From: Peptococcaceae bacterium 1109
GTDB taxonomy: Bacteria > Bacillota > Limnochordia > Darwinibacteriales > Darwinibacteriaceae
DNA: 64,000 bases
Reading direction: 5' to 3'
NCBI GenBank assembly: GCA_001028815.1
Contig: LDJB01000004.1
Location: forward strand, 13,733 to 77,732
In this document: piece by piece, positions 526 through 48,682 of the stretch
Position numbering within the stretch: the stretch's first letter is position 1
Layout of the letters: each line of letters opens with the position of its first letter
The notes under the pieces: model-generated
Seen by the model: only the letters and a program-made list of their open reading frames with translations
Told to the model about the DNA's origin: nothing
Database searches by the model: none
Made by a program: the position numbers and the translations under genes

Positions 526-1137
526 TCACTTCGCCAGGTATAGTGCCTCCACTAAGGCCGCTCCAACAAGGAAAAGCAGTGTCAACAGGGCGAGTATCCT
601 TTCGACACGGGAAAACTTCAGGGAACTGAGGGTATGCTTTTCCACCCACTCCTTGGCGGGAAAACCGTCGGCAACAAGGAGCGACTTGGTAAGAGTCAGT
701 CCGCAAAAAACGGCATAGGCACTTGTCTCCCATAAGCCTATGCGTAAATACTGCAGGTTGGCAGCTGCTATGCTTGGAAAGGGAACCTCAAAGCCATTCG
801 TTCCCGCGACCCAGCCAATGGTAGCTCCTTGAACAAGTAATACCAAGAGGCCAGGGGTCACCGAGCCGAAGCGGACCAAGATATTGCCTGCACCAATGAG
901 CAGCAGCACGATAGCATTTCTGAAAACGATATATCCTAAGGTGCTGGCAACCCCGCCAACTGCCGCGCTGGCAGGCGCTATAGCGGGCACATCTTGCCAC
1001 GCGCCAGGCCTGGCCAGATACCCTATCACGAAAAACACCCAGAGCACAGCCTGCAGCAAGAGCCAGATTATGATCGTTCTCTTTACCGCGCCAACCTGGT
1101 ACAAACCACTAAAGAACCTACCTATAGATTTTGACAT
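526..1137 (-). CDS. Polytopic membrane protein, SpoIIM/DUF95-like
   Basis: 203-aa ORF with about six hydrophobic segments. The stretch FRNAIVLLLIGAGNILVRFGSVTPGLLVLLVQGATIGWVAG resembles the SpoIIM/DUF95 IFxNN...G..G...NG..G signature. The call rests on memory of family motifs. Confidence 0.45.
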   Translation of the reverse strand: MSKSIGRFFSGLYQVGAVKRTIIIWLLLQAVLWVFFVIGYLARPGAWQDVPAIAPASAAVGGVASTLGYIVFRNAIVLLLIGAGNILVRFGSVTPGLLVLLVQGATIGWVAGTNGFEVPFPSIAAANLQYLRIGLWETSAYAVFCGLTLTKSLLVADGFPAKEWVEKHTLSSLKFSRVERILALLTLLFLVGAALVEALYLAK

Positions 1138-1186: not shown

Positions 1187-4183
1187 CTAGAACGACGTGA
1201 CAAGGCCTACACCAAAGCTTTGGGTATCTGCTAGGGACAGGTTCTTACTGTAATGTGCCTGGATCTTCAGGCCAATGGGCGTTTGGTAAGTTAAGCCCAC
1301 CCCGACGCTGTGAAGTAGGTGACTGTGAGCCCAATCACTTCCATCTTCCCAAATCTTCGCCACCTCATAGTTAACGTGAGCCGCTAAGTCCTGGGTGAAG
1401 TATCGCCGCAGTTCCAGATGGGAGTGTAGATTCATCTCTCCCACAAACATGGGAGAACCTGTCCCCAACTGACCACCGCCACCCAGACGCAGCCTGCGGT
1501 CAAAGGGCGTCCCCCTTTCGGTCCACGCGGCATTTACTTCCACACCGCCAACAAAGCCGCCGCCAAGATAGGATAGATTCCCCGCTCTCACGTGGCAACT
1601 CACATAATTCTCCGCGAAATCTTGCCGGTTCGCTAGGATGGCGACGCCAGCCTGTATGGACGTCCCTTCCTGGGTCCAAGTGGTATTGCCGGGAATACCT
1701 GTCCGCGCCGTGATGGCTAGAGTCACATAATCACCGCTGGGTACTTCTAGGCCTGTTGTAGTCGCTATGCTATCAACCTGGCTTTGTGAATAACCCAGCG
1801 TGAGGCCTATGGCACTGTGTGCCCCAATGGGTATGCTGCTGCTGAACGAAGCATCTTTCCTCTCCAGGCTGTACTCGCTTCCCGCATGCATACCCCAGCG
1901 GACCTTCCCGTGGACCGCCTGCGACTGATACCTTATGGTACTCGGCCATGAGAACAGCGGGAATGTGAGGAAAGCCGTTCTGCTGCGGCTTGGCCCAAAG
2001 CTGTACCCCCCACCGATCGAGGCTAGTGTTCCTGCCACATTGTAATACCGCATAACTATGGTTTGCTGAGAAAGGTTCAGGAAATTTTCCACCACGAACT
2101 GAACGGGGTCCAAGTAAAAGCCGAAGCCTTCACTAATCCGCACAACAATATCGATGGCATTTTCCCCAATGGGAACAACATACATCTGAACCTGATCCAG
2201 TGCGCCCAGGGCATGGAGACGGCGCCTTGCCGCCGCAAACCGTGAGTAATCAAATGGTGAACCTTCCTCAAGCTGGAGAATCCGCGAAACAATCCCTTCA
2301 TTGGTACGGTGGGTTCCCAGAAGGCGAACGTTGGCAATCTTCATACCATGATACTGGCTGTACAGATCCCAATCATTGATGGGGATGGCCTGGGGAGCCT
2401 TAAGGAACCGTGCAAGGGCGCTATCTCCAGTAGTAAAATAATACGAGGACTCGGAGAACTCGAGATAGACAGGCCTGCGCAGGCCTACCTCAGCAAGCTG
2501 ACGGTAAAAGGGAGCGTTGTCAGCCAAATCAGCCACCTCTACCTCTAGCGCCCCTTGATAACACTCCACTGCAGCTTCTCGTTCCCCTGCATTGTCATGC
2601 AAGGAGCCAAGAATGGCTAAGGCTTCTAGTCGGTAAAACGGCTCCGCAGCGCGGGGCATGTCCGCCAGGATCTGGAAGTACCTCTTGGCCTGCCCTTGGT
2701 CCCCCATCCGCAGATAGGTGTGTGCCTTGAGGTTCACTACCGCCTCAGCATGGGAAAGCCCAGGATCAAGCTGGTCAAGATAATCTAGGGTGTCGTCTAG
2801 CCTGTTCTGGGAAAATGCAAGTTTGGCCTTGCGGACAAGCAGCCAGTTGGCGAGGTGGTCATCCTCGACCGTTGGCTCGATGTTGCGCGAAAAGACCGCC
2901 GCATCTTCACCAGCCAGTGCTCTCGCAAGGCTAAAAGCATAGAACTCGTTATCTGGAGCTCCACGCCCATCACCAGGAACGGAAACCCACAGGATCTGTT
3001 CCTCGGGGGAGAACACACAGCTGAGCAAAGTACCGCTGTTGTTAATGCCGTCTAAGAGGCCCTCATATTCGGCACTCCCTGGCCTACCCCGATCCCGCAG
3101 GAGCTCCACCATGGACTCCACCTGAACATCCCCGTACTGGCCGGAAAGGAACTGGGCGAGCCTTTGATCACGGCGTTCAGAGGCCAACCAGCCTGAGGCC
3201 TGGAACTGCCGCATGTACTCACTGTGGTACCGATTTGTGGCCGTTAGCAACCCTTCCTCCGCTTTCCTGATGGCGAAACGGTTGGCATCTACCTCCAGCA
3301 CCACCGCATCAGGGATCTTGCTGTCTGAAATCACGATATTCATGCCGAAGGTTCGTGGCGTGCCCAGTACGATTTCCACCGCTTCATCTAAAGTCGATGC
3401 ATACTGCACGATCTGGCGCAGCAGAAACATCATGGCCATGCCATCGAGGGAGTTGGCTGCTTGATCCACCAAAGAGTAGTTCATGGAAACAGTAATGCCT
3501 TGGTTGTTCATGGCCTGCATTACACCCACGTAAGTGGGGTATGTGTAGGTGATGAACGGAAATCCTTGATCTGGTTCATAGACCACCACATAACCATACT
3601 GCGCCCAATCGATCATGGATATGTTGTCGAGGTTGCGGGCATGATATAGAGATCCGCTAGCTGTAGCCTTGCCAAAGGCTACTATGGAGGTGCATCCGAA
3701 GGCCATGCCAAGGTCCTGGGACACGTTGCTCATTATAACGTCCATAGGATCGGAGTATTGTCCCTCGCTCACTCCAACGATCAAACCCTCTAGCTCCTTC
3801 AAGAAGTCATGGGGGATATTTCTCCGAATCCAGGGAGCCATTTTGTACTGAAAGTAGAATCGCTTGAACCCCTGCACAAGCCGTTCAAATCCTGAAGCTG
3901 GATCATCTAGTGGATTGAGCTCATCCCTCATCTGCAGTAGATGCTCTGCGGGATACAAATGGGTAAGCAGCGTCCCATGCTGCAACCCTATTTCGTAGGG
4001 GGTACCTTTGAGGTGCATGAAGACTATAGGACCGAATGTTTCCACATAACCTTTTCCTGCCTGGAACCTGTTGCCAACTTGCTCAACTGGCAACTCGGGG
4101 GAGCTCTGCGCCAGGCCAGAAAGGAGCACCACTAAGGTCCACGCAATAACCAAAACCCGTCTTGCTCGCTGAACGTCGTCCAT
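1187..4183 (-). CDS. Secreted C45-family (acyl-CoA:6-APA acyltransferase-like) Ntn-hydrolase fused to TPR repeats, a POTRA domain and an Omp85/D15-type outer-membrane beta-barrel
   Basis: 998 aa with a signal peptide (MDDVQRARRVLVIAWTLVVLLSGLAQSS). It carries the C45 autoproteolytic Gly-Cys nucleophile motif (MAFGCTSIVAFG) and a central TPR-like helical region. A POTRA-like beta-alpha-alpha-beta-beta unit follows (MKIANVRLLGTHRTNEGIVSRIL...MYVVPIGENAIDIVVRISEG). The C-terminal ~350 aa alternate amphipathic beta-strands and end in ...GVGLVTSF, the terminal Phe typical of OM barrels. The stop is TAG. Confidence 0.8.
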   Translation of the reverse strand: MDDVQRARRVLVIAWTLVVLLSGLAQSSPELPVEQVGNRFQAGKGYVETFGPIVFMHLKGTPYEIGLQHGTLLTHLYPAEHLLQMRDELNPLDDPASGFERLVQGFKRFYFQYKMAPWIRRNIPHDFLKELEGLIVGVSEGQYSDPMDVIMSNVSQDLGMAFGCTSIVAFGKATASGSLYHARNLDNISMIDWAQYGYVVVYEPDQGFPFITYTYPTYVGVMQAMNNQGITVSMNYSLVDQAANSLDGMAMMFLLRQIVQYASTLDEAVEIVLGTPRTFGMNIVISDSKIPDAVVLEVDANRFAIRKAEEGLLTATNRYHSEYMRQFQASGWLASERRDQRLAQFLSGQYGDVQVESMVELLRDRGRPGSAEYEGLLDGINNSGTLLSCVFSPEEQILWVSVPGDGRGAPDNEFYAFSLARALAGEDAAVFSRNIEPTVEDDHLANWLLVRKAKLAFSQNRLDDTLDYLDQLDPGLSHAEAVVNLKAHTYLRMGDQGQAKRYFQILADMPRAAEPFYRLEALAILGSLHDNAGEREAAVECYQGALEVEVADLADNAPFYRQLAEVGLRRPVYLEFSESSYYFTTGDSALARFLKAPQAIPINDWDLYSQYHGMKIANVRLLGTHRTNEGIVSRILQLEEGSPFDYSRFAAARRRLHALGALDQVQMYVVPIGENAIDIVVRISEGFGFYLDPVQFVVENFLNLSQQTIVMRYYNVAGTLASIGGGYSFGPSRSRTAFLTFPLFSWPSTIRYQSQAVHGKVRWGMHAGSEYSLERKDASFSSSIPIGAHSAIGLTLGYSQSQVDSIATTTGLEVPSGDYVTLAITARTGIPGNTTWTQEGTSIQAGVAILANRQDFAENYVSCHVRAGNLSYLGGGFVGGVEVNAAWTERGTPFDRRLRLGGGGQLGTGSPMFVGEMNLHSHLELRRYFTQDLAAHVNYEVAKIWEDGSDWAHSHLLHSVGVGLTYQTPIGLKIQAHYSKNLSLADTQSFGVGLVTSF

Positions 4184-7614: not shown

Positions 7615-8735
7615 GCTTCGTCCTCCCTAGTGTCCCCTATGCCATTTCTCTGTCGGAGAGGCAGAACACACACCAAGCGAAAACCGTTAGTGTCATTGAC
7701 GGAAATACTCCCCCCAACCGCTCGGGCACGCTGCCGCAAGTTCCGCAGCCCTACACCGTCCTTGGCGCGGCCCACAGCTTCCCCATCATTTTGCACGCAC
7801 AGCCTGACGATAAACGGGTTGACGTCCAGGACAACGTCCACTTGCGTGGCCTGGGAATGTCGAATTACATTTGTCAGCCCTTCCTTCAGGCAAGCCTCCA
7901 GCACACTCCAAAGATACACAGGTAGGTCGGAAGTGTCGCCAAACACATGCAACTGCAGTGGGCAAGCTGTGAACCCTCGGCAGATCTCCTCAAACCGCTC
8001 AATGCCCACAAACGCAAGGGGCTTAATGCGGTGAGCGGCTTCCCGAAGCTGCCTCGCGCTCTTGGTCAGCCGTTCTTTGGTGTGAGACAGCATCTCAGCA
8101 GCTAGAGGATCTCTTTCCTCCCACAGTCTCTCAAATGCTTGGAGGGCTAGAACGGCGCCCGTGAGTTCGTGGCCAACATTGTCATGCAGGTCCTGAGCAA
8201 TCCGATTGCGCTCTGTTATTTCCGCCATGCGCGCTATACGTACATTCGCTGTGAGTAATTCTGCCCGAAGGCTTTCCAGCTCATAGCGCTCCCGCCGCTG
8301 GCGGTCTGCCTCTGCACGATACAGGCCTACTTCCCCAGCCCATTCTCGAATAACCCAACCAGAAAGCGCGGCCTGAAGAAGGACGGCCACTAAAGGGAAA
8401 GAGGGTTGGAAATAGATGCAACCGATCATTCCTGGAATAACCAGCCAAGCCCTCCCTTCCCGTACGGCTTCAAATAGGGGAAGGCCCAATCCGTATACGG
8501 CGCCGGGCCAAAAGGGAACAGTCCCAAAGCAGAATAGCTGGTCAAGGAGTACTGTCCATCCAGGCAAAGCGAAGCGCCAGCGCGCCACTGCCATGATGGC
8601 CAGCAGCAGAAGAAGGACCACGCCCGCCTCCCCACCAGGGCCACTCAGCCACAGCAGAGTCAGCAGCAGCAGTCCCGAGACTCGCCAAATCGCTGTACTT
8701 GTTCGGGGATCCAATTGTCGCCACCCATGACCCAT
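7611..8735 (-). CDS. Sensor histidine kinase of the HisKA_3/DesK-LiaS type
   Basis: N-terminal TM segments, an H-box (AQDLHDNVGHELTGAVLALQ) and a C-terminal HATPase region (GLTNVIRHSQA...NDGEAVG...GVGLRNLRQRARAVGGSISV). Confidence 0.85.
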   Translation of the reverse strand: MGHGWRQLDPRTSTAIWRVSGLLLLTLLWLSGPGGEAGVVLLLLLAIMAVARWRFALPGWTVLLDQLFCFGTVPFWPGAVYGLGLPLFEAVREGRAWLVIPGMIGCIYFQPSFPLVAVLLQAALSGWVIREWAGEVGLYRAEADRQRRERYELESLRAELLTANVRIARMAEITERNRIAQDLHDNVGHELTGAVLALQAFERLWEERDPLAAEMLSHTKERLTKSARQLREAAHRIKPLAFVGIERFEEICRGFTACPLQLHVFGDTSDLPVYLWSVLEACLKEGLTNVIRHSQATQVDVVLDVNPFIVRLCVQNDGEAVGRAKDGVGLRNLRQRARAVGGSISVNDTNGFRLVCVLPLRQRNGIGDTREDEA

Positions 8736-8759
8736 AGCCCCACACCTTAACGTTCTGAT

Positions 8760-9446
8760 CTAGATGAGCCGCCTCATACTGCCCAGCAGTACAAACGCCG
8801 CACTGTACAGGAGCATCAAACCCAGAGGGAGCCCCAGCCCCAGCAAACGGGCCCCGTCCGCTGCGGACAGGAGTCCCTTAGTCAACCAATACGTGGGCAC
8901 CAACATCGCCAGGCGCTGAAATAGGGAAGGCATAGCCTGTACTGGCCACATTATCCCCCCAAGCATCATCATCAAAGGGATGACGCCAGTAATGGTGGCA
9001 ACCGCCCCTTCTCTATTACGAAACAGCGAAAACCATGCCAGGGAAAAACCTAGAGAGGCGATGGAAAAACAGGAAAAAACCAGGAAGAGCGTCCCCGGGG
9101 CCACCAAACGGTTCCCATGCACCGCGGTGCCCAGGGCAACGACAATTCCGCTCACACCAACGAGAATCAACGCGAAGGCCGCCAAGGTCTGCCAAAGATA
9201 CTGAGAGTGTTTGACTGGCGCTAGCCCAATGCGGAGCAATGTACCCTTGATCCTGTCTTCCATAACTATAGTGCCCATCCTCGCAGCGATGAACATTAGC
9301 ACCATCCCGAAATACTGGAACCCCATTGGTAAAGGGAACCAACCACTAGGAGGCATAAATACCACGGCGATTGGGAGCAGCGTGACCAACAGGATATTGG
9401 CCGGGTTTCGGAGGAATCGCTTCAGTACGAACCGGAAAATCGTCAT
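8760..9446 (-). CDS. ABC-2 type transporter permease
   Basis: Six-TM hydrophobic protein. The preferred start is MTIFRFVLKRFLRNP at 9446, which has a GGAGGAGG RBS and ATGA coupling to the upstream permease stop. Confidence 0.75.
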   Translation of the reverse strand: MTIFRFVLKRFLRNPANILLVTLLPIAVVFMPPSGWFPLPMGFQYFGMVLMFIAARMGTIVMEDRIKGTLLRIGLAPVKHSQYLWQTLAAFALILVGVSGIVVALGTAVHGNRLVAPGTLFLVFSCFSIASLGFSLAWFSLFRNREGAVATITGVIPLMMMLGGIMWPVQAMPSLFQRLAMLVPTYWLTKGLLSAADGARLLGLGLPLGLMLLYSAAFVLLGSMRRLI

Positions 9447-10177
9447 GCAAGCTTCCTCCTCCCGAAGTAGATAGAAGCCCACACCAACGCTACAGAGGCC
9501 AGCAACAGAATGGCAAGGCTATACAGCGCCTCGTTCCCATACCGGCCTGTCATAATATACAGCATCACGTTCCGCGATAATGACAGCGGGTTTCCGTACT
9601 TGGTCAGGAAGTTGAACACTGTGGTGTTAGGAAGCTGGAACCATATGCCCGCAAGGGCAAAAGAGCCCAAGCCATAAACCTCTCCCAATCTTTCTCCCAG
9701 CTTGTCGGACTTCACACCCAACGCGATCAGCATATAAACTAGCTGGTTGAGGGCGGAGAAGAACACAAGAAGTACCAAGATAGAGAGGAAACTGCCCCAA
9801 CGTACGCGGTAAACCCAATGGGTGTACAGGACCATAGCAAAGCCCTGCAGGGCGCTGAACAACGAAGATGATATGAGGATGGAAAGGGCATGGTAAAAAG
9901 GCGGATAGGGTAGTGAGTATAGCCGCCACTTTCTGGGAGAAAACAGATCGCTTCGCAGAAAATCAAGAGTGTAGTTTCCCCCGAAAAGTTGGAAGGCAAA
10001 GATGATGATCATAGCCACGCCATCTATAGCTGGGATGCCGAGCTTAGGATCAATCCCATCGCCCACCACTAGGCCTATTACACTGATCAATGCTAATGGC
10101 AATACCACCAAGATAGCCAGGCCAAGATACCCTCGCAGCAGTCTCCGGAACATGTAGTTGCTTGCTCTTAACAGCAT
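9443..10177 (-). CDS. ABC-2 type transporter permease
   Basis: 244-aa polytopic membrane protein located between the ABC ATPase and the second permease, in a tight operon. Confidence 0.75.
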   Translation of the reverse strand: MLLRASNYMFRRLLRGYLGLAILVVLPLALISVIGLVVGDGIDPKLGIPAIDGVAMIIIFAFQLFGGNYTLDFLRSDLFSPRKWRLYSLPYPPFYHALSILISSSLFSALQGFAMVLYTHWVYRVRWGSFLSILVLLVFFSALNQLVYMLIALGVKSDKLGERLGEVYGLGSFALAGIWFQLPNTTVFNFLTKYGNPLSLSRNVMLYIMTGRYGNEALYSLAILLLASVALVWASIYFGRRKLA

Positions 10178-11331: not shown

Positions 11332-12498
11332 CTAGACTGTGCTTGAACTAATATTCGAAAGTTCCCTTAGGATATCCTCCAGTTCTTGGAGAAACGCCGA
11401 GTCTGCCAACCGTTCATCTCTGCCCCGCTTTACAGCCCTCCCAAGCCGGAGGATGATGGATGCTAACTGCTCCACTGGACTTCTTAACCTGGATTCTTGA
11501 GCAAACGTATGCGTACCAATCAGGCATACCGCGTCGATCTCGTTAAAACCTGGAACTTGATCAGTTCGGAGCACCAGTCGAACCTGGCGTGCAGGGACGT
11601 TCACTTTGGTATTCTCGATGTACAGGATGCGAGACTCTTGTGGAGCGGTTTGAGCCGTACCCTCCCAGATAACGTGAGCCCTGCCGGTTTCATCAATTAT
11701 CTCCGCCTTGACGATAGCCCCTGGATTATAGGTTTCATACACGTCAATGCGCTGCACATGCACGGCCTCGTCGTAGAAGAGCTCAACCCATTCCTCACCG
11801 CCATCGCTATAAGCGGCGGTCCAGGCTCTATCGTAGTCGCCATATTTGGGATAGACATCGGGTACGCCGGTCATGTGCTCAGGAGTCCACCGGTCTACTC
11901 GGTATTGACTGCTGGCTTTGGCTGCGCTTGCCCACTGGACTACTATGTCGGACTGCCCGAGAGTTTGAGGCCAGGGCGAATTGCGGCTGCCGGTGATGCT
12001 CACTGCGTCGATCTCGTTCCAACCACTAACGGAGTCCGTATCCAACGTGATCCGCACTCGTTGGCACGGTACCGTAACGATGCCGTTCTTCACACTAAAT
12101 ACCCTTGCGCTGCCTCCAGCCGATCCTCCTGTACTGTCCCAGAGCAGGTGCCAGCGTCCTGTCGTGTCTAGCAGCTCCACCTTTACCGTCGCGCCTGCAT
12201 TAAAGGTTTCGTAGATGTCCACACTCTCTACATAAACAGCCTCAGCGAATCCCAGTTCTGCCCACTGAAGGCCGTTGTTCCTGCTAGAGGGTGCCCAAGC
12301 ACGCCCATAGTCTCCGTAGTTGGGGTATACATCAGGCTCCCCTAACATCTGCTGCGCTGACCAGTCCCCACTTCCATACTCACTGCTGGCAGTGACTGAT
12401 ATGGCCCATTGCGTAAAAGACTGGCACTGGGCCTTACCGATAGTGGCCAACAAGACTAACACAGCGAGGAGCGAAATCATCCACCAGTTTCTTGTCAT
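11332..12498 (-). CDS. Membrane-anchored or secreted protein with two tandem ~150-aa beta-rich domains of unknown function
   Basis: The preferred start is MTRNWWMISLLAVLVLLATIG at 12498, which has a GAGGGGGGAAG RBS. Two internal repeats share DVYP(N/K)YGDY(G/D)RAW...W(A/V)EL...Y(V/Q)..(V/I)D(I/V)YET(F/Y)N(A/P)GA(T/I)VK.E(L/I).D.TGR.H..W...GWNEIDAV. The longer ORF extending to 12747 adds an unlikely N-terminus. Confidence 0.6.
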   Translation of the reverse strand: MTRNWWMISLLAVLVLLATIGKAQCQSFTQWAISVTASSEYGSGDWSAQQMLGEPDVYPNYGDYGRAWAPSSRNNGLQWAELGFAEAVYVESVDIYETFNAGATVKVELLDTTGRWHLLWDSTGGSAGGSARVFSVKNGIVTVPCQRVRITLDTDSVSGWNEIDAVSITGSRNSPWPQTLGQSDIVVQWASAAKASSQYRVDRWTPEHMTGVPDVYPKYGDYDRAWTAAYSDGGEEWVELFYDEAVHVQRIDVYETYNPGAIVKAEIIDETGRAHVIWEGTAQTAPQESRILYIENTKVNVPARQVRLVLRTDQVPGFNEIDAVCLIGTHTFAQESRLRSPVEQLASIILRLGRAVKRGRDERLADSAFLQELEDILRELSNISSSTV

Positions 12499-12798
12499 TC
12501 TTCTTCCCCCCTCGTCGTGCGGTGTGATACCGAACACGGTCGCCTCGACCCGATCTCCCTGGATGATCCGATTTGCTTTGCCCCTCTCATCCCCCACCTC
12601 AGCCGCAAGGCCAACCCTACTGCGGATCCAGCTTGTGTGTTTTCTCATATCCACCTCTCCCCTTCCGGTAGCTGTGCCTTTAGCATAACGCCTCAGCGTG
12701 GACATGCCATCCCCTGTTCGGCGGAGAACATAAGAAAACACCCTCATACTTTAGTATGAGGGCGACGTAAACTCCAGCTAGCGACATGTCAGATGTCT

Positions 12799-14979
12799 TC
12801 AATCAAGTTCGCCGAGGATGATTATGGAATTGTACTCCGTAATGGCCAGCTGGTCTCCTGCAGGTGACCAGGCGAGAGACTGGAGGCCAAGTTCTTGGCC
12901 GGGATACGTGTAGAGGACTTCCCCCGTCTTAACATCCCAAATACGTACAGTGCCACTGTGGCTGCCTCCTGCAAGATAACGCCCGCAGGGGGACCACTCC
13001 ACAACGGTAACTACGCTGTCATCGCCGGACAGAGTCCGCTCAACTCTATCTGTCTCCAGATCCCAGATGTAAATCTTCCGATCATAGCCCGAGCTTGCTA
13101 AGTGCTTGCCATCGGGAGACCAAGCAAGCGATTGCACCCAGCCATTGTGGCCCTGGAGCCTCTTAATTTCCTCCCCAGTCGTGCCACTGTAGACATGCAC
13201 AGCCTGATCGTAGCCGCCAAAGGCGACTTGATCACCCCGGGGAGACCAAGCAACGGTAGTCAGCCAACCCTGAGGGTTCTGGATGCCTACAAGTTGGGTT
13301 CTGGTAGGAACATCCCAGATGGCAACGGTCTGGTCCCAGCTGGCACTGGCAAGCCGCTTGCCATCTGGCGCCCAGCTTATGGAGAAGACTATGTCTTCGT
13401 GGCTGACGGATTTTAGCCCAACCGCGAACTCAAATCCCCGGGAATGAACAAACGGTTTCTTGATGCGTTCAGTGAAAGCACCAACGTACTCTCCATCGCC
13501 AGTCATATTCCAAAGCCGCACTAGGAAATCATGCCCGCCGCTTGCGAGATGAGTCCCATCGGGTGACCATGCCAAAACTTCCAAAGGCCCGCTGTGGCTG
13601 GGGCGCAGCTGCATCCTTTCCTTCCGTATCTGCAGGTCCCAGATTCGGATCGTTCCTTCTTCTCCACCCGATGCCAGATAATCACCCTGAGGTGACCAGG
13701 CCAAAGCCTTAACCGCACGGGTATGGCCTGCGATCCTCAGGATGTTCTCCCCTGGGACTGCGGACCAAAGGTCAATGATACCTCTATAGCTCCCACTAGC
13801 CAGCACATGCGACGTATTGCCCCAGTCCAGGGCCAGCACTTCACTGCCCACATTGATGCTCCGCACCAATTCTTGCCCTTCCACGTCCCAAACCTGGATC
13901 AACCTATCTGTACCAGCTGCAAGGTACCGCCCATCGTAGGACCACCTTAAGTCTGTAATGCCGCCACGGTATTGGGCAAGGGAGATCTCCTCTCCTGTTT
14001 CGAAGTTGAGGACCCTCAAGGAACCGTTCCCCAGCCCAAGGGCTACTAAGGAGCCTTCTTGCGCAGCAGATAGTGACATGATCTTATCCTTCATCTTGTA
14101 CTCAGCATGAAGTTCCCCTGACTCCGCCTCCCACACCTTGAGGCTCAGACCATCGCCGCCGCTGAGCAAATACCGGCCGTCGGGGGACCAAGCAACAGCC
14201 CTCACCCAGCCCTCATGAGCCAGCGTGTGGAGTTCACTGGCCGTAGCAAAATCCCAGATCCTTACCTTACTGTCCCAACCAGAACTGGCCAGTTTCATCC
14301 CGTCGGGTGACCACGCCAAATCAGTGAGGGAGTCTGTATGGCCAGCCAAAGCCTTGACTTCTACGCCCGTCTGCCAATCCCAGATCTTGATCTTGCCGTC
14401 TCTCCCACCGCCGGCTAGGTAGTGGCTTTGGGGAGAAAACGCAACCACCTTAACAGCGCTTGCGTGGCCGCTCATGGTCCTCACTAGCTGCCCATCATCT
14501 GTTCTCCAGATCCTGATCGTCCGATCATTGCCGCCACTTGCGATATACTGATCATCCGCGGAAAAGGCTATTGCCTCAACCCAGTCCCGGTGGCTGGCGA
14601 AGGAAAACTGGGCTCCCCATCTGGCGAAGTTAGGTTCCGCCCAGGGATGGGCTGCAAACTCCAACTCCCGGGCATCTTCCACCACCTGCTTTTCCGGGGC
14701 AAAACTGTAACCGGCTTTGCGGGGGATGATCACTGTATCACTCTCAGCAGCAATTTCGAAATACCCTTCCCTATCTGTCTCCAGATACGCCCCGGTTCCA
14801 TCCAGGATCAAGAGGCTCACGCCCTCCAAACCCGCTCCGGGATCTTCCGCCAAGACCACCCGCCCCGCGATCGTGCTCTTCTCCGGCACTGAAGTACCGC
14901 TTTGCACGCAGCCGCTAATTGGCAGGACAAGTAACATCAAACCAACCATCAAGGAAAGGCACTTAGACGTTCTGTTCAT
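12799..14979 (-). CDS. WD40-repeat lipoprotein with an N-terminal carboxypeptidase-regulatory-like domain
   Basis: Lipobox (LLVLPISGC), then a ~80-aa beta-sandwich-like segment (AGRVVLAED...GYFEI). At least 12 WD40-like repeats follow, recurring as GH(T/S)..V..(L/V)A(W/F)SPDG..LASG(S/G).D..(I/V)(R/K)(I/L)WD. Confidence 0.85.
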   Translation of the reverse strand: MNRTSKCLSLMVGLMLLVLPISGCVQSGTSVPEKSTIAGRVVLAEDPGAGLEGVSLLILDGTGAYLETDREGYFEIAAESDTVIIPRKAGYSFAPEKQVVEDARELEFAAHPWAEPNFARWGAQFSFASHRDWVEAIAFSADDQYIASGGNDRTIRIWRTDDGQLVRTMSGHASAVKVVAFSPQSHYLAGGGRDGKIKIWDWQTGVEVKALAGHTDSLTDLAWSPDGMKLASSGWDSKVRIWDFATASELHTLAHEGWVRAVAWSPDGRYLLSGGDGLSLKVWEAESGELHAEYKMKDKIMSLSAAQEGSLVALGLGNGSLRVLNFETGEEISLAQYRGGITDLRWSYDGRYLAAGTDRLIQVWDVEGQELVRSINVGSEVLALDWGNTSHVLASGSYRGIIDLWSAVPGENILRIAGHTRAVKALAWSPQGDYLASGGEEGTIRIWDLQIRKERMQLRPSHSGPLEVLAWSPDGTHLASGGHDFLVRLWNMTGDGEYVGAFTERIKKPFVHSRGFEFAVGLKSVSHEDIVFSISWAPDGKRLASASWDQTVAIWDVPTRTQLVGIQNPQGWLTTVAWSPRGDQVAFGGYDQAVHVYSGTTGEEIKRLQGHNGWVQSLAWSPDGKHLASSGYDRKIYIWDLETDRVERTLSGDDSVVTVVEWSPCGRYLAGGSHSGTVRIWDVKTGEVLYTYPGQELGLQSLAWSPAGDQLAITEYNSIIILGELD

Positions 14980-24088: not shown

Positions 24089-25660
24089 ATGGAAGACACA
24101 CCGAAAACCCAAGACTCAACCGAATACTCATGGCAAGAACGTGCACTTAAAGCAGAAGCTGAGTTGGCCAAGGCCCTCCAGAAACTGGAGTACCTCGAGG
24201 CTCAACTGCGCCTGCTGACTGCCAAGCGCTTTGGCAGATCCAGCGAGAAGACGAGCAAAGATCAGCTTCAGCTCTTTGAGGACGTTTTCAATGAAGCCGA
24301 ATCAAACGCAGAGCCCTTTGCTCCGGAGCCGGAGCTGATCACGGTGCCCGCCCACCAGCGTGCCAAGCGCAAGAAAAAGAAAGGTGTCAGCCTCGAAGGC
24401 CTGCCCGAGACCGTGGTTGAATACCGCCTTCCCGAGGAAGAGCTGACCTGTTCCTGCGGCCATGAAAGGCATATCATCGGCCAAGAGGTTACCAAAGAGC
24501 TGGTCGTGGTGCCGGCCCAGTTTTCCGTTACTAAGCATGTGCAGTATGTTTACGCCTGCCGCCACTGCGAGAATCACGGAGATGGCACGGCTCCCGTTGT
24601 GGTCAAAGCACCGAAACCAAACCGGGCTTTCCCGGGCAGTATTGCTTCTCCTTCTGCAGTAGCACATGTCATTGAAGAGAAGTACGTTATGGCCGTTCCC
24701 CTCTACCGTCAGGAGAAACAGTGGGAGCGAAGAGGCGTAAAGGTGTCCCGGCAGAACATGGCTAACTGGATCATGGCCGCCCAGCACTGGTTGCAGCCCA
24801 TCTATGACCGCATGAAGCAAGTACTTTTGAGCCAGGACATCATATTTGCCGATGAAACCACTCTCCAGGTTCTCCAGGAAGACGGCAAAAAAGCTGAATC
24901 CCAGTCATACATGTGGCTGTATCGTTCAGGACGTTATGGGCCTGGGATCGTGCTTTTCGAGTACCAGCCCACCCGTTCTGGGGAACACCCGAAAGAGTTC
25001 CTGAAAGGGTTTAAGGGTTACCTGGTCACAGATGCCTATGGAGGTTACAATGGTATCCCCGATGTGACCAGGGTTGGCTGCTGGGCCCATGCTAGAAGGG
25101 GCTTTGATGAAGCCATCAAAGCTGCAGGCAAAAGGTCCAAAGCTCCCCAAGCAGCAGAGGGCCTTAAGTTCTGCAACGATCTGTTTGACATCGAGAATGC
25201 TCTTGAGGATGTCGATCCTAAGGAGCGCTATGCGCGGCGGCTTCTGCGCAGCAAACCTGTGCTGGACGCTTTTTTGGCATGGCTTGAAAAGACCCGCGAG
25301 GAATGTGCCAAGCAAAGCCATTTAGGCAAGGCTGTGGAGTACTGCCTTAACCACTGGAAGGAACTGAACAACTTCCTCTTGGACGGTCGGCTAGAGCTAA
25401 GCAACAACCGCTCAGAGCGGTCCATCAAGCCGTTTGTCATCGGAAGGAAGAACTTCCTGTTCTGCATCACTCCTCGGGGAGCCAAGGCAAGTGCCACAAC
25501 CTACAGCATCGTCGAGTCGGCCAAGGAGAACGGTCTCAAGCCCTTCGAGTACCTGACATACCTGTTCACAGAGCTCCCCAATGCAACCACGAAGGCTCTT
25601 GACGAGTTCCTCCCCTGGTCAGAATCTCTGCCGGATAACTGCCGCATACCCAGCAAATGA
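24089..25660 (+). CDS. tnpC: IS66-family transposase TnpC
   Basis: 523 aa with an N-terminal coiled coil, a Zn-finger (CSCGHERH...CRHC) and a DDE region (...FADETTLQV...LVTDAYGGY...CWAHARR). Confidence 0.9.
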   Translation: MEDTPKTQDSTEYSWQERALKAEAELAKALQKLEYLEAQLRLLTAKRFGRSSEKTSKDQLQLFEDVFNEAESNAEPFAPEPELITVPAHQRAKRKKKKGVSLEGLPETVVEYRLPEEELTCSCGHERHIIGQEVTKELVVVPAQFSVTKHVQYVYACRHCENHGDGTAPVVVKAPKPNRAFPGSIASPSAVAHVIEEKYVMAVPLYRQEKQWERRGVKVSRQNMANWIMAAQHWLQPIYDRMKQVLLSQDIIFADETTLQVLQEDGKKAESQSYMWLYRSGRYGPGIVLFEYQPTRSGEHPKEFLKGFKGYLVTDAYGGYNGIPDVTRVGCWAHARRGFDEAIKAAGKRSKAPQAAEGLKFCNDLFDIENALEDVDPKERYARRLLRSKPVLDAFLAWLEKTREECAKQSHLGKAVEYCLNHWKELNNFLLDGRLELSNNRSERSIKPFVIGRKNFLFCITPRGAKASATTYSIVESAKENGLKPFEYLTYLFTELPNATTKALDEFLPWSESLPDNCRIPSK

Positions 25661-44662: not shown

Positions 44663-47320
44663 TTACTTGTTTTCCTCATTAGTACCTAGCCCTTCTATTT
44701 GCTGGACCGTTTGGGGAGAGAGGATGTCTGTAAGGGATGCCTTTCCTGTACCCTGCCTTCGCATGTACGATTCCTGAGAGAGTTCCAGAGCGCTTTCCAT
44801 GGCTTCCCTGAGCTCCCTGGCGGAGAGCAGCGCACTGCCGGCTCCCCTGATAATCACCTGCTGGAGCCCGTCGGAGGTAGCGACGGTAATGTTGTACTTA
44901 TCTTGATTGTCAAAGGCAAACTTCTCAATGTACTGGTCGGCAGTCTGGGCTGCCTTAGTAAAGACGACATGAATGTTATGGTATGCCTCTAACTCCGCTA
45001 GCTGCCGATCCTTGATGCTATACGCATCAAACACAACAATGATCTTATACGGACTCACCGCCTGATAAGAGCTTAGAGCATCCAGGAGCCGAGTGCGGGC
45101 AATGTCCATATCTTCCTGGGCAAGGCCTTTGAGCTCCGGCCAAGCATGGATCACGTTGTACCCGTCCACTAGCAGATAGTTCTCCCTCGGTGGAAGGGAG
45201 TTTGAGGGGCCCTTGCCGCGCTCTGCTTCTGCCCGGCGCTGCCCTGCCCGTTCTTTCCAGCTTGATTTCCGGCCCAGATTGCCCGTAGTCTGAAGGTAGG
45301 GGTAATCATCGTGGTCGTACTCAAATTGCTCTCTGGCCACCCCTGCCCGCGGCCTCGTAATAGGGCTGGAGCCAGGGGCAGCACGTTGTCCTTCCCTAAA
45401 CTGCGCTTCGATGTGCATGTAGTCTTTCACTTGATCCCAGGGCACGTGAAAACCTGCCCCGCCCGCGCAGAATACCGACCCAGGAGGATTGTCCACATCG
45501 GCTTCTGCATCATAGCCTATGCGCGCAATCACTTCATCTCCATTGTGGCAGGGGAAGTACCCTGCGGAGCTGCAAAACAGCCGCCCTTGGCCCCTAGTAT
45601 AGGCGGCTACTTCCTGAGCGTAGTTCTGCATCGTAGCTACCGGCGCCCGTCCCGTGAGGATTGTCATCTCGCCAGAGGTGCCTGCAATCTCCCAGGTGCC
45701 GTGCGTGCTTTCCAGATCTGTGATGGCCCTGCCCACAACCTTCTCCGGCACTTCCAGCCGGAACTCGTAGTAGGGCTCCAGCAGGACAGATTCTGCTTGC
45801 ATCAACCCCTGGCGAACCGCCCGGTAGGTGGCTTCGCGGAAATCTCCCCCTTGGGTGTGATCTAGGTGGGCCCGTCCTGCCACTAAAGTGATCTTCATAT
45901 CTGTAATGGGGGCCCCGGTGAGGACGCCCTTATGCGCCTTTTCCGCCAAGTGGGTGAGGATTAGCCGCTGCCAGTTTTTCGCAAGGAAGTCTTCACTGCA
46001 GTCAGCAGCAAACTCCAATCCGCTCCCCCGGGGAGCAGGCTCTAGGAGAAGGTGGACCTCCGCATAGTGCCCTAAGGGTTCGAAATGGCCAATCCCTTCA
46101 ACAGTGCTCGCAATGGTCTCTTTGTAGAGAATGCGCCCTGCGTCAAAGGATACATTCACGCCAAAGCGCTCTGAGATGAGCCTCTGGAGGATTTCAATCT
46201 GCACTTCCCCCATGATCTGCACCTGAATCTCCTGGAGCTGTTCATCCCACACAACGCTCAGCTCTGGTGCTTCCTCTTCCAGCTCCTTTAGTTTCGGCAG
46301 CATCACCCGGGGTTCCAATTCTTCTGGCAGCACGACCCGGTAGGACAACACGGGCTCCAGGACCGGGACCATTAGGCCGCGCTCCCCCCCGATCCCCTGT
46401 CCCGGCCGAGTTTGGGTGAGGCCTGTCACCGCGCAGACCGTTCCCGCACTGACTTCCCCCACTGCTTCATACTTCTGTCCAGAATAGATCCGGATCTGAT
46501 TGACTTTCTCTTTCCAGCCTTCACCAGTGATTTCATCCCTGACCTTCAAAACGCCCCCAGTCACTTTCAGGTGGGTAAGGCGGCTTCCCTGCTCGTCCCG
46601 GGAGATTTTGAAGACCTTTGCCCCAAATTCCTGGGGATAACTGGGGATGACAGCATAGCGCGCAAGTCCCCGCATGAACTCTTCCACCCCATCTAAGTGG
46701 AGTGCTGACCCGAAGTAGCAGGGGAACACTTTCCGCTCCCTTACCGCCTCTTTGATTTCTTCCTGGGAAAGCTGTTTTGCAGCAAGGTAGGACTCAAATA
46801 GGCCCTCATCACACAGGGCAACCCGCTCAAAAAAAGCTGCCCCCTCTCCGCCACCAAACTCCGTGCACCGGCTGTCGAGCCTTTCCTGAAGTTCCTCAAG
46901 GAGTGCTGCCTTATCGGTCCCTGGTTGATCCATCTTGTTCACGAAGATGAATACCGGGACTTTGTATACGTCTAAAAGGCGCCATAGGGTGCTTGTGTGC
47001 CCCTGCACTCCATCAGCGCCGCTGATCACCAAGATGGCGTAATCCAAAACCTGCAGGGTGCGCTCCATCTCTGTGGAAAAATCCACGTGGCCCGGGGTAT
47101 CTAAAAGTGTGATCTGCAAATCGCCCAAGGCAAAAACGGCTTGCTTGGAAAATATGGTGATGCCCCGTTCCTTTTCCAGGTCATGGGTGTCTAGAAAAGC
47201 TGTCCTTTTATCTACCCGGCCCAGCCTCTGGATTCTGCCCGCCAAGTACAGCATGCCCTCTGAGAGAGTGGTCTTTCCCGCATCCACGTGGGCAAGGATG
47301 CCGACAACTAGTTTCTTCAT
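44663..47320 (-). CDS. Translational GTPase of the EF-G/Tet(M)-like ribosomal-protection-type family fused to a C-terminal Rae1/YacP-type NYN ribonuclease domain
   Basis: 885 aa. G1 AHVDAGKTTL, G3 DTPGH, G4 NKMD, then EF-G-like domains II-V to about aa 640 and a basic linker. The NYN domain is YLLVDGYNVIHAWPELKGLAQ...YKIIVVFDAY...HNIHVVFTKAAQTADQYIEKFA...ITVATSDGLQQVIIRGAGSALLSARELREAM, which closely resembles B. subtilis YacP/Rae1. Confidence 0.85.
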   Translation of the reverse strand: MKKLVVGILAHVDAGKTTLSEGMLYLAGRIQRLGRVDKRTAFLDTHDLEKERGITIFSKQAVFALGDLQITLLDTPGHVDFSTEMERTLQVLDYAILVISGADGVQGHTSTLWRLLDVYKVPVFIFVNKMDQPGTDKAALLEELQERLDSRCTEFGGGEGAAFFERVALCDEGLFESYLAAKQLSQEEIKEAVRERKVFPCYFGSALHLDGVEEFMRGLARYAVIPSYPQEFGAKVFKISRDEQGSRLTHLKVTGGVLKVRDEITGEGWKEKVNQIRIYSGQKYEAVGEVSAGTVCAVTGLTQTRPGQGIGGERGLMVPVLEPVLSYRVVLPEELEPRVMLPKLKELEEEAPELSVVWDEQLQEIQVQIMGEVQIEILQRLISERFGVNVSFDAGRILYKETIASTVEGIGHFEPLGHYAEVHLLLEPAPRGSGLEFAADCSEDFLAKNWQRLILTHLAEKAHKGVLTGAPITDMKITLVAGRAHLDHTQGGDFREATYRAVRQGLMQAESVLLEPYYEFRLEVPEKVVGRAITDLESTHGTWEIAGTSGEMTILTGRAPVATMQNYAQEVAAYTRGQGRLFCSSAGYFPCHNGDEVIARIGYDAEADVDNPPGSVFCAGGAGFHVPWDQVKDYMHIEAQFREGQRAAPGSSPITRPRAGVAREQFEYDHDDYPYLQTTGNLGRKSSWKERAGQRRAEAERGKGPSNSLPPRENYLLVDGYNVIHAWPELKGLAQEDMDIARTRLLDALSSYQAVSPYKIIVVFDAYSIKDRQLAELEAYHNIHVVFTKAAQTADQYIEKFAFDNQDKYNITVATSDGLQQVIIRGAGSALLSARELREAMESALELSQESYMRRQGTGKASLTDILSPQTVQQIEGLGTNEENK

Positions 47321-47473: not shown

Positions 47474-48682
47474 TTAGTAGATGGTTTTCTGCAGTTCAGC
47501 GTATTCCTCAAACAAGGTAAGGCACTGTTCTCTCCCGTACTCGGAGATCGCTAGGACAGAGGTGTCCTGCTGCCCCCCTTCAATGAAGCGGTAGATGAAG
47601 GCATCCCGGAAACCGATCTCCTCCGCATCTTCCGGCCTGCAGCCGTACACTACTTGCTTCACATTGGCCCAGATAATCGCGGAAAGACACATTGGACAAG
47701 GGTAGGCGGTGGTGTAGATCCAACAGCCAGTGAGGTCGTGGGTGCCTAAGATCTGCCCTGCTAAGCGGATGGCATTGATCTCCGCATGAGCGGTGGGATC
47801 GTGATCCCGCAGCACGCTGTTGGAAGCGACGCACACAATGTTGCCTTCTCCATCAATCACCGCGGCACCGAAAGGCCCTCCAATATCCTGCCGCATGGTC
47901 GTCCTCGCCTGTTCAATAGCCCTGGCCATGGCTTCATCCATAGCGGTACCTCCGTGCTTTGCTCCAATGTCTACGGGGAAGTCAAAATACGTATCAGGGT
48001 ACGGTTCACCCACCAGGCTGTAGTGCCACCATTCCTCAGGATAGGGAGCAAAGCCTGCGGCCACCATAGCATCTCGGAGGATGCTGCGGTTGGCGGCTTG
48101 CTCAGGGGTGATGAGGTCTGTTCCGTGGTGGGAAATCTCACCGAAGAAATCAAAACCGCTGCCCATATCTACTTCTTCCCCAGTGTCCTTGTACACCAGT
48201 GTTAAGTCCACCACGCTACCCCGGGTGTGTCCAGATTTCTCCGCAATGTAACCAAGCTCAAAGAGCCGGGACTTGTCCACCTGAGGATAGAAGATCCCTT
48301 TCATCTTCTGGTCCTCCAAGTCTGCGGCCCAGCGCACAAAATGGTCCACGGCCCGCTGTGGCCGGTAAGCATCGAAAACCTTGATGTAGTACCCCTGCTC
48401 ATCTAAGATATCCGCAGCGACTTTCAACGCCGCGGCAGCTTCTTCAGTGAGGATGGCAACGGGAGCCTCGTAACCATCGACAGGCGCTCCTACGAAGTTA
48501 TTGTCCCCGTAATACCTGATCTCAAGTTGGGCAGTTTCCACCACATCCGTGACATACACGAAACCTTCAGGAAGAGTGAATGCCGAAGCTTGAGCAGTAA
48601 CGCAGGCCAACACCAACAGTACCCAAAGGACGCCAGCTTTTCTCTTGAACATCTCTCTGCACCTCCTTGAAACGTAAGCCAT
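47474..48682 (-). CDS. Secreted fusion of a VanX-like D-Ala-D-Ala dipeptidase (M15D) and a CDA-fold nucleoside/nucleotide deaminase (TadA/GuaD-like)
   Basis: Signal peptide MFKRKAGVLWVLLVLACVTAQASA. VanX motifs SGHTRGSVVD and EEWWHY. The deaminase carries HAEINAI ... PCPMC zinc ligands. Confidence 0.8.
   Translation of the reverse strand: MAYVSRRCREMFKRKAGVLWVLLVLACVTAQASAFTLPEGFVYVTDVVETAQLEIRYYGDNNFVGAPVDGYEAPVAILTEEAAAALKVAADILDEQGYYIKVFDAYRPQRAVDHFVRWAADLEDQKMKGIFYPQVDKSRLFELGYIAEKSGHTRGSVVDLTLVYKDTGEEVDMGSGFDFFGEISHHGTDLITPEQAANRSILRDAMVAAGFAPYPEEWWHYSLVGEPYPDTYFDFPVDIGAKHGGTAMDEAMARAIEQARTTMRQDIGGPFGAAVIDGEGNIVCVASNSVLRDHDPTAHAEINAIRLAGQILGTHDLTGCWIYTTAYPCPMCLSAIIWANVKQVVYGCRPEDAEEIGFRDAFIYRFIEGGQQDTSVLAISEYGREQCLTLFEEYAELQKTIY

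Follow-up and report, generated by a model that had tools for sequence, protein, structure and literature searches.

A C45-family Ntn-hydrolase on a single-POTRA Omp85-type barrel in a Limnochordia bacterium: a candidate periplasm-facing enzyme of the outer membrane

Does an Omp85-type barrel that carries an amidase on its N-terminal side export this enzyme, or does it hold the enzyme at the periplasmic face of the outer membrane? The question is raised by a gene of Peptococcaceae bacterium 1109 (Limnochordia) that lies at positions 1187..4183, on the minus strand, of a stretch of 64,000 nucleotides from contig LDJB01000004.1, which was analysed as a whole and is referred to as the window. The open reading frame (ORF), here called C45-Omp85, is uninterrupted and encodes 998 amino acids from the ATG at 4183 to the stop codon at 1187..1189. 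An initial annotation, made from the DNA alone, had read in it a signal peptide, a C45 domain with a Gly-Cys site, TPR repeats, a POTRA domain and an Omp85-type barrel ending in Phe, had pointed out the parallel to PlpD-type proteins and had regarded the C45 domain as a passenger that is displayed or released. The domain order was recovered by Pfam and NCBIfam searches, structure models and Foldseek, and the parallel to PlpD, i.e. an enzyme, one POTRA and an Omp85-type barrel in one chain, holds as well. The passenger role fared less well, and on balance our analysis leans slightly towards an outer-membrane-anchored, periplasm-facing amidohydrolase/acyltransferase of family C45 with a cysteine N-terminal nucleophile (Cys-Ntn).

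Domain content of the C45-Omp85 protein

The enzyme domain is recognised by two family models, AAT of Pfam (PF03417; 69.6 bits, cut-off 23.2, residues 178-404) and C45_proenzyme of NCBIfam (NF040521; 185.7 bits, cut-off 85, residues 59-396), the latter being matched over profile positions 1-311 of 313. The N-terminal part of the proenzyme, the future alpha chain, comprises residues 28-163 (3695..4102; this and all following features of the gene lie on the minus strand), as indicated by NF040521 and by the Foldseek match to 2x1c, and ends with Gly163. The next codon (3692..3694) encodes Cys164, the predicted Ntn nucleophile, so that the predicted autoprocessing site is Gly163|Cys164. According to Pfam AAT, the conserved columns and the model, the catalytic beta chain extends from residue 164 to about residue 435 (2879..3694) and includes the HARNLD motif (residues 181-186, 3626..3643). 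Gly163-Cys164 is the sole GC dipeptide of the whole protein. Cys164 is invariant in 19 orthologues and also in a wider set of 20 C45 relatives, and the residue before it is G, A or M among the orthologues. When residues 1-610 were aligned with diverged relatives at 24-40% identity (alignment A4, 20 sequences), C164, R183, D186, N226, G229 and R338 were found among the 14 columns that are invariant down to 24% identity.

The model of residues 1-610 based on this alignment reaches a predicted local distance difference test (pLDDT) of 87.3 and a predicted template modelling score (pTM) of 0.86, and its C45 region lies mostly above pLDDT 85. Cys164 is placed at the start of a beta-strand (residues 163-169), as expected of an Ntn nucleophile. 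The top Foldseek match of the C45 model is the uncleaved precursor of Penicillium isopenicillin-N acyltransferase (IAT; 2x1c, E 2.1e-15, TMt 0.76), matched over its whole 355-residue chain, followed by human NAAA (E 1.1e-13), acid ceramidase (1.1e-11) and then by penicillin V acylase and bile salt hydrolases. Both the model and the Foldseek match thus display the alpha-beta-beta-alpha fold of Ntn-hydrolases such as IAT. At the level of sequence, the C45 region alone gave no match to PDB sequences, even at E 10. The full-length AlphaFold2 (AF2) model is weak over the C45 part (pLDDT 30-50, pTM 0.42) and was used neither for C45 nor for the geometry between domains. From the conserved residues and the N-terminal model it is concluded that the C45 domain should be a catalytically competent, self-processing enzyme, the cleavage between Gly163 and Cys164 being predicted by homology.

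The precursor begins with a putative Sec-type signal peptide (residues 1-27, MDDVQRARRVLVIAWTLVVLLSGLAQS, 4103..4183) with an A-x-S cut site, signal peptidase I presumably cutting after A-Q-S and before Ser28. As read from the sequence, it has a basic n-region (R6/R8/R9), the hydrophobic run VLVIAWTLVVLL and small residues at -3/-1; in the N-terminal model residues 2-24 form a helix, followed by a low-confidence break. The same reading found no Cys and no lipobox in the signal peptide, so that the protein is not expected to be a lipoprotein.

The C45 domain is followed by a TPR-like helical module of about three repeats and seven helices (residues 440-570, 2474..2866). The seven helices, at residues 442-569, are modelled with pLDDT >90, and C45 and TPR together form one compact unit in the model. 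TPR_8 (residues 520-548) scores 25.5 bits in the protein itself, just below the cut-off of 25.7; at the search threshold, TPR_2 was found in 16 and TPR_8 in 15 of the 19 orthologues. Designed or consensus TPR proteins of the PDB were matched at E 1.5e-6 with the single sequence and down to 2.5e-16 with the family profile. The linker that comes next (residues 571-612, 2348..2473) consists of a conserved hairpin, SSYYFTT.DSA.ARFLKAP, and a variable stretch of low confidence at residues 595-610. It leads into a single POTRA domain (PF07244; residues 613-686, 2126..2347), which is matched over residues 615-686 with 30.2 bits (cut-off 21.3) and in 19/19 orthologues. This domain aligns with the last POTRA of BamA (4k3b, residues 349-417), and the BamA model TIGR03303 gives a weak match of 34.9 bits, with a cut-off of 297.15, over profile positions 322-512, i.e. 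from the last POTRA into the barrel.

Residues 687-998 (1190..2125) make up the barrel, which ends with ...GVGLVTSF; the C-terminal Phe is present in 16 of 19 aligned sequences. In the Pfam scan the protein's own barrel did not reach PF01103, which was matched by three of the 19 full-length orthologues (best 2.3e-9) and by more distant barrel relatives. The AF2 model built with the orthologue alignment contains 15 clear strands over residues 708-994 (pLDDT ~70-90). An L6-like loop lies between strands 10 and 11 of this count, which implies that one strand is missing upstream. The conserved RYYNVAG presumably corresponds to the end of BamA strand 2 (N-x-x-G-x-G), which would place strand 1 in segment 686-705, where it is expected and where the model has a helix of low confidence. 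With Foldseek, the barrel matches TamA (4c00, E 1.7e-13) and more than 40 BamA chains (E ~1e-12) in the PDB. Because orthologues match PF01103 and Foldseek returns TamA and BamA, the C-terminal region is assigned, by family profile and by model, to the Omp85-type barrels. The families named by the initial annotation were thus recovered in part with Pfam: AAT and POTRA lie above their cut-offs, PF01103 is not reached and TPR_8 remains just under its cut-off. That annotation would have been given up if the C-terminus had failed to score as POTRA/Omp85; the POTRA does score, and the Omp85 assignment is supported by the orthologues and Foldseek. Each of the elements that it described is thus upheld.

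Distribution of the architecture and relatives of the barrel

Orthologues were collected by a search of 5.8 billion proteins, and all of them come from metagenomes or metagenome-assembled genomes (MAGs). About 22 full-length orthologue clusters with 55-99% identity and 989-1011 amino acids, and one more at 33%, were found in JGI, ENA, NCBI and Logan assemblies, together with at least 14 loci in species-representative genomes. In the species-representative set, the MAGs are labelled Limnochordia, Bacillota, Clostridia DTU065 and similar, with anaerobic digesters as their main source. Limnochordia/Bacillota MAGs also contain a second clade, at about 35% identity, and one cluster at 31% identity is labelled Petrotogales (Thermotogota). 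The whole layout is kept in these diverged versions at 31-38% identity. In the automatic annotation of databases the proteins appear as 'BamA/TamA family outer membrane protein', 'C45 family ... hydrolase' or 'predicted choloylglycine hydrolase', and our literature searches found no papers on C45-Omp85 or S41-Omp85 fusions.

Two observations on individual genomes belong here. Two ORFs, of 288 and 715 amino acids (the latter being P0021), make up the orthologue at locus L009 (10001..13001), a split that may reflect a frameshift, a pseudogene or an assembly error. MAG JAKOUW01, labelled Chloroflexota, has two copies of the gene on two contigs (L002, L011), each ~78% identical to the window protein, which suggests mis-binning or a strain mixture and not an origin in Chloroflexota.

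Given the metagenomic origin of the data and the split orthologue, an artefact was considered, whether from chimeric assembly, from reading through two neighbouring genes or from the decay of a pseudogene. The 998-residue frame is, however, uninterrupted, and the same architecture and length recur in the ~22 clusters and at least 14 loci; the mean column identity of the 19-sequence orthologue alignment is 72%, with catalytic and structural residues invariant, and the layout persists at 31-38% identity. Such an artefact is hardly conceivable, and the conservation data effectively refute it. Because of the ~22 clusters, the conserved length and the independent MAGs, the gene is judged, on comparative sequence grounds, to be real and under selection.

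The relatives of the barrel were sought with an exhaustive HMMER search, in which a profile of the POTRA-barrel part (A2) was run against 1.84 billion cluster representatives and the full-length matches were scanned with Pfam; a word-index search with this profile had added just two proteins, and the exhaustive search was used instead. Sixteen proteins lie below E 1e-30. The nearest barrel relatives score 125-290 bits, whereas the canonical multi-POTRA BamA proteins that were checked score 55-75 bits. In detail, the matches include C45-POTRA-Omp85 proteins with or without TPR (P0028, P0030, P0035, P0036, P0040) and fusions in which Peptidase_S41, in some cases with Tricorn_C1, precedes POTRA and Omp85 (P0031-P0034, P0039 and, with lower scores, P0056, P0067, P0092 and P0112). 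The barrels of the S41 fusions are the closest to that of C45-Omp85, with 22-28% identity over ~400 residues and E as low as ~1e-36. The members of this sister family, among them P0204-P0208, have 800-940 amino acids, and those that are named come from 'Firmicutes bacterium' and 'Thermotogota bacterium' MAGs. Stand-alone relatives of the S41 module (~535 amino acids) occur in the monoderm Thermoanaerobacter, Caloramator and similar organisms.

Further down the list, TPR-POTRA-Omp85 proteins without an enzyme domain appear (P0055, P0062, P0063, P0074), as do fusions of a C39-like papain peptidase with TPR, POTRA and Omp85 (P0066 from Vicinamibacteria, Acidobacteriota, and P0081); P0048 has a C39-like domain and a POTRA, and no TPR was detected in it by the Pfam scan. 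Between these C39-like fusions (P0066, P0081, P0048) and the window protein, similarity is confined to the POTRA and the first strands of the barrel. The patatin motif GGGx(R/K)G...GxSxG...DG(G/A) was found in none of the 148 best barrel relatives by a regular-expression search, a crude measure that involves no phylogeny, and the Pfam patatin domain in none of the 40 barrel relatives scanned. Judged by its sequence relatives, the POTRA-barrel unit serves in different proteins as the carrier of different hydrolase modules and does not form a branch of the PlpD family.

Outside these fusions, the C45-TPR module is found in Myxococcota as stand-alone proteins of ~575-600 amino acids that match residues 41-571 and lack a barrel. 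At loci L017 (9791..11593) and L019 (9842..11644) the listed ORFs have 600 amino acids, or ~575 from an internal Met, and share the GCTS and YHARNLD motifs; no obvious signal peptide is present in these stand-alone homologues. The idea that TPR is an ancestral part of the barrel scaffold was considered and set aside as unproven, since no similarity was detectable between the TPR regions of the C45, C39-like and TPR-only fusions; it is further countered by the barrel-less C45-TPR proteins of Myxococcota.

The signature motifs of Omp85 proteins are partly lost from the window protein. The L6 Arg and the strand-13 Asp are reportedly a conserved 'lid lock' of functional Omp85 transporters, and TpsB-type secretion depends on the L6 motif RG(F/Y). 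In the L6 loop segment RLRLGGGGQLGTGSPM (residues 897-912, 1448..1495) the LGG part is kept and L-G-T stands in place of R-G-(F/Y), so that the (V/I)RG(F/Y) signature is absent. In the HMMER alignment with Fusobacterium BamA (9ccg), GGGNSLRGYD stands against LGGngqLgaes, the window protein reading LGGGGQLGTGS. According to MAFFT alignments, the deep C45 clade (P0022, P0028) retains RGY or RGF, as do the canonical BamA/TamA-like proteins P0077 and P0160, and P0052 has RGH. RG(Y/F) has been lost from the clade of the window protein (QLGTGS), from P0030, P0035 and P0036 and from the S41 family (xAAYxP). The strand-13 motif (F/Y)xDxG reads N-Y-E-V-A here versus F-F-D-A-G; the acidic position is retained as Glu, and other residues stand in place of Phe and Gly. 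That the L6 Arg is lost argues for a relaxed transport or insertase function, without proving it.

These motifs bear directly on the idea that C45-Omp85 is a working Omp85 insertase or translocase paralogue, in which TPR would act in cis as a BamD-like receptor and C45 would process or acylate the clients. The idea draws on the lack of BamB-E in diderm Firmicutes (PMC13018214), on the existence of the enzyme-less TPR-POTRA-Omp85 relatives, on the canonical L6 and beta-13 motifs retained by the deeper C45 clade and on the alignment of the POTRA with the membrane-proximal POTRA of BamA. In the clade of the window protein, however, RG(F/Y) of L6 is lost and there is only one POTRA, TIGR03303 stays far from its cut-off (34.9 bits vs 297), and the gene lies outside any outer-membrane biogenesis cluster. 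The TPR, moreover, accompanies C45 in the barrel-less proteins of Myxococcota and would accordingly belong to the enzyme module, and the TPR regions of the different fusion families have no detectable sequence similarity. We therefore give little credence to such a paralogue.

Topology and proposed mode of action

If the slightly favoured reading applies, the precursor would be exported by Sec and residues 1-27 would be removed by signal peptidase I, after which the BAM machinery would insert the C-terminal 312 residues as a 16-stranded Omp85-type barrel. POTRA, TPR and C45 would stay in the periplasm, like the N-terminal parts of all topologically characterised Omp85 proteins, including PlpD. 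The C45 proenzyme would then cut itself at Gly163/Cys164 and expose Cys164 as the N-terminal nucleophile; the alpha chain of ~15 kDa (residues 28-163) would be held non-covalently, as in isopenicillin-N acyltransferase, and the beta chain would remain covalently joined to TPR, POTRA and barrel. Tethered in this way, the enzyme would cleave or transfer an acyl-amide bond of an envelope substrate near the inner face of the outer membrane, with the TPR repeats possibly holding the substrate or a partner. The barrel would serve mainly as a membrane anchor or scaffold and not as a translocator.

A periplasmic module is favoured because C45 and TPR form a compact unit directly upstream of the POTRA, because L6 is degenerate and because the sister fusions bear peptidases of family S41, which in diderms reside in the periplasm (Prc and CtpA are examples). 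An anchoring role of the barrel is likewise favoured because the L6 motif RG(F/Y) is absent from the clade of the window protein and because N-terminal modules appear to be interchangeable on one POTRA-barrel unit.

The passenger role proposed by the initial annotation corresponds to true autotransport of type Vd, in which the barrel, aided by the POTRA, would move C45-TPR across the outer membrane, where the module would be displayed or, after cleavage of the linker, released. The exported enzyme could then have amides outside the cell as substrates, for example acyl-homoserine lactones, beta-lactams or bile-salt-like conjugates, and small-amide enzymes (penicillin V acylase and bile salt hydrolases) are indeed among the structural neighbours of C45. 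The domain order is that of PlpD and FplA, for the first of which secretion was proposed in the original report (summarised in PMC4104836), and the linker of 42 residues with its disordered stretch could span a pore. The topology of enzyme-Omp85 fusions was left open in 2014 (Heinz & Lithgow 2014, PMC4104836). Since then, however, experiments have contradicted the secretion model of PlpD: its patatin domain is exclusively periplasmic and the protein is a dimer (Hanson et al. 2024, PMC11116518). FplA was not detected at the surface, moving an already folded domain through a closed Omp85 barrel was judged to be energetically unfavourable, and the PlpD enzyme probably acts on lipids of the inner leaflet (PMC11116518). 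For C45-Omp85 itself, the lost RG(F/Y) of L6, the compactness of the module (pTM 0.86) and the lack of patatin-type relatives among the 148 nearest barrels point in the same direction. In addition, a compact alpha/beta and helical-repeat fold would have to cross unfolded, as a single chain and before self-cleavage, and C45-TPR is unlike the beta-helical passengers exported by type V systems. Autotransport is thus considered unlikely, though it is the strongest of the competing explanations.

Several points nevertheless weigh against a periplasmic, anchored enzyme. The full-length model has a pTM of only 0.42, and the length and partial disorder of the linker (residues 571-612) would in principle allow it to pass through a barrel. 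Degeneration of the beta-13 motif is only partial, and the barrel may have kept some Omp85 function. Monoderm Clostridia have relatives of the S41 module that stand alone; export would place these outside the cell, so that an outward-facing role of such modules is not absurd. The Myxococcota C45-TPR proteins have no obvious signal peptide, and the module is accordingly not intrinsically an envelope enzyme. Finally, the gene neighbourhood gives no help concerning the substrate.

As candidate substrates we suggest, by analogy, an envelope protein or peptide or an N-acyl lipid, because the neighbours in fold are amidases of lipids and small molecules, the sister fusions carry peptidases and TPR repeats are usually peptide-binding. 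Lipid A was also considered. Its deacylation is unlikely to be the conserved function if the C45-Omp85 member labelled Petrotogales is genuine, a point that depends on the label of one MAG, because Thermotoga maritima has no genes for lipopolysaccharide synthesis (PMC10160955).

The usual view of Omp85 proteins is that of machinery for the insertion or translocation of other proteins. The 2024 study on PlpD suggested that an Omp85 barrel can instead act as a scaffold for a periplasmic enzyme (PMC11116518). Our data suggest that this use has been repeated with different hydrolases, namely C45 amidases and S41 and C39-like peptidases, in deep-branching diderm lineages. Going one step further, these single-POTRA barrels may form an undescribed clade that serves as a modular outer-membrane anchor for periplasmic hydrolases (C45 with TPR, S41, C39-like with TPR) in diderm Terrabacteria (Limnochordia, Thermotogota) and some Acidobacteriota, a proposal that we put forward tentatively and with somewhat less conviction than the topology of C45-Omp85 itself. 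If it is true, the tethered enzymes of the clade would have proteins, peptides or lipids of the envelope as their substrates and process them at the inner face of the outer membrane, in lineages without the usual proteobacterial accessory machinery such as BamB-E, and the principle seen in PlpD would be widened from a single phospholipase to a whole toolkit. The C45, S41 and C39-like fusions would add Omp85 subfamilies beyond the ten of 2014, C45-Omp85 would make it possible to test whether an 'enzyme-POTRA-Omp85' protein ever works as a secretion system, and an amide-bond reaction at the outer membrane of diderm Firmicutes would be indicated, in host lineages whose envelope biology is almost unexplored. 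If C45-Omp85 is merely an anchored amidase of minor role, it would be a modest addition to the catalogues of domain architectures.

Gene surroundings and comparison with known systems

The ATG of the C45-Omp85 gene is immediately preceded by AGGA and GGGAG. The G+C content of the gene (~53%) falls within the 51-59% seen along the window, and its composition is thus unremarkable. A gene for a multi-pass membrane protein of 203 amino acids (526..1137, minus strand) starts 49 bp 3' of the stop codon and is possibly co-transcribed; any functional link is conjectural. It is found within ~170 bp downstream of the orthologue at L003, L005, L006 and L009 and ~1-3 kb further downstream at L001, L002 and L011, and it gave no match to Pfam or NCBIfam models, even at E 10. 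Upstream lie genes for a nucleoside hydrolase, a two-component system and an ABC-2 transporter, none of them syntenic. The 203-residue membrane protein is hence the sole syntenic neighbour, and no outer-membrane biogenesis cluster was found in the gene neighbourhood. At a single locus of the deep clade (L012), a gene for a 511-residue protein with beta-lactamase fold, similar to S12 D-peptidases (8351..9886, plus strand), ends 16 bp upstream of the C45-Omp85 gene.

Some distance away, the window encodes a 726-residue protein (12799..14979, minus strand) that consists nearly entirely of WD40 repeats, with ten stretches reported, and next to it an ORF of 471 amino acids (11332..12747, minus strand) with only a weak match to DUF7402. 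The WD40 gene is also near the C45-Omp85 gene at L001, L002 and L011, and the 471-residue ORF also at L011.

The initial annotation had further seen in the barrel direct evidence that the organism has an outer membrane. This is right and not new: the relatives belong to Limnochordia, whose diderm nature is established by genomics and electron microscopy (PMC11456536), and the window contains TolC-like proteins. These are encoded in a TolC-HlyD-MacB tripartite efflux cluster (56602..61988, minus strand throughout) with two TolC-like OEP genes (59539..60942 and 60939..61988), HlyD (58508..59542), a putative ABC ATPase of 232 amino acids that was assigned by its position in the cluster (57813..58511) and MacB/FtsX (56602..57816). 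The cluster constitutes independent evidence of an outer membrane in this organism.

Elsewhere in the window, several unrelated genes were noted. An 885-residue protein (44663..47320, minus strand) joins an EF-G-like GTPase (GTP_EFTU, EFG_III, EFG_IV, EFG_C) to a C-terminal YacP-like NYN nuclease, which is an unusual combination. A second fusion, of 402 residues (47474..48682, minus strand), combines a VanX-like M15 D-Ala-D-Ala dipeptidase with a cytidine/deoxycytidylate deaminase, and a protein of 1450 residues (52148..56500, minus strand) comprises a partial protein-kinase domain, AAA_16, GAF and a LuxR-type helix-turn-helix. An intact IS66-family transposase (zf-IS66, DDE_Tnp_IS66, IS66_C) is encoded at 24089..25660 on the plus strand. 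No tRNA genes or Rfam families were found in the window, and a scan for promoters and terminators performed no better than on shuffled sequence.

Among known systems, PlpD and FplA are the most obvious counterparts. They share with C45-Omp85 the signal peptide, the N-terminal hydrolase, exactly one POTRA and the 16-stranded Omp85-type barrel in one chain, and probably also the logic by which an Omp85 scaffold holds an enzyme at the periplasmic face of the outer membrane (PMC11116518). The enzymes themselves differ: PlpD and FplA are Ser-Asp patatin phospholipases, whereas the window protein is a Cys-Ntn amidase of family C45 that requires self-cleavage, with no patatin family returned by the Pfam and NCBIfam searches, and it has, unlike them, a TPR module between enzyme and POTRA. 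The barrels are not specifically related either, as far as the crude motif test on the 148 relatives can tell. The hosts are Bacillota (Limnochordia) and Thermotogota in the present case and Proteobacteria and Fusobacteria in the case of PlpD and FplA. The 'Metallo' (PF00149)-Omp85 and WD40-Omp85 proteins likewise combine an Omp85 barrel with an unrelated N-terminal enzyme or interaction domain (PMC4104836). Their profiles were described without POTRA sequences, whereas the C45-Omp85 family keeps one POTRA, and none of the ten Omp85 subfamilies of Heinz & Lithgow 2014 contains a C45, S41, C39-like or TPR module (PMC4104836).

With regard to the enzyme, IAT (PenDE, MEROPS C45, PDB 2x1c-2x1e) shares the Gly|Cys autoprocessing site ~100 residues into the domain and is the best structural match, including the pro-region. 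At 16-17% identity it is nevertheless a soluble, peroxisomal fungal enzyme without TPR or membrane anchor, and acyl-CoA, its co-substrate, is probably not available outside the cytoplasm. NAAA and acid ceramidase (6dxw, 5u81), which belong to MEROPS family C89, share the fold; as Cys-Ntn enzymes they cleave themselves, and they hydrolyse amides of fatty acids at membranes, a precedent that fits a membrane-proximal amidase; they are eukaryotic lysosomal proteins, and a likeness at the level of the fold says nothing firm about the substrate.

As to the barrel, BamA and TamA have in common with C45-Omp85 the fold of POTRA and 16-stranded barrel, the LGG of L6 and the C-terminal aromatic residue. 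They differ in having 3-5 POTRA domains versus one and in RG(F/Y), which is lost here, and the equivalog cut-off of TIGR03303 is missed by the window protein. The principle of an enzyme on an Omp85 barrel is thus already known from PlpD and Metallo-Omp85, and the C45-Omp85 architecture apparently represents an undescribed instance of it.

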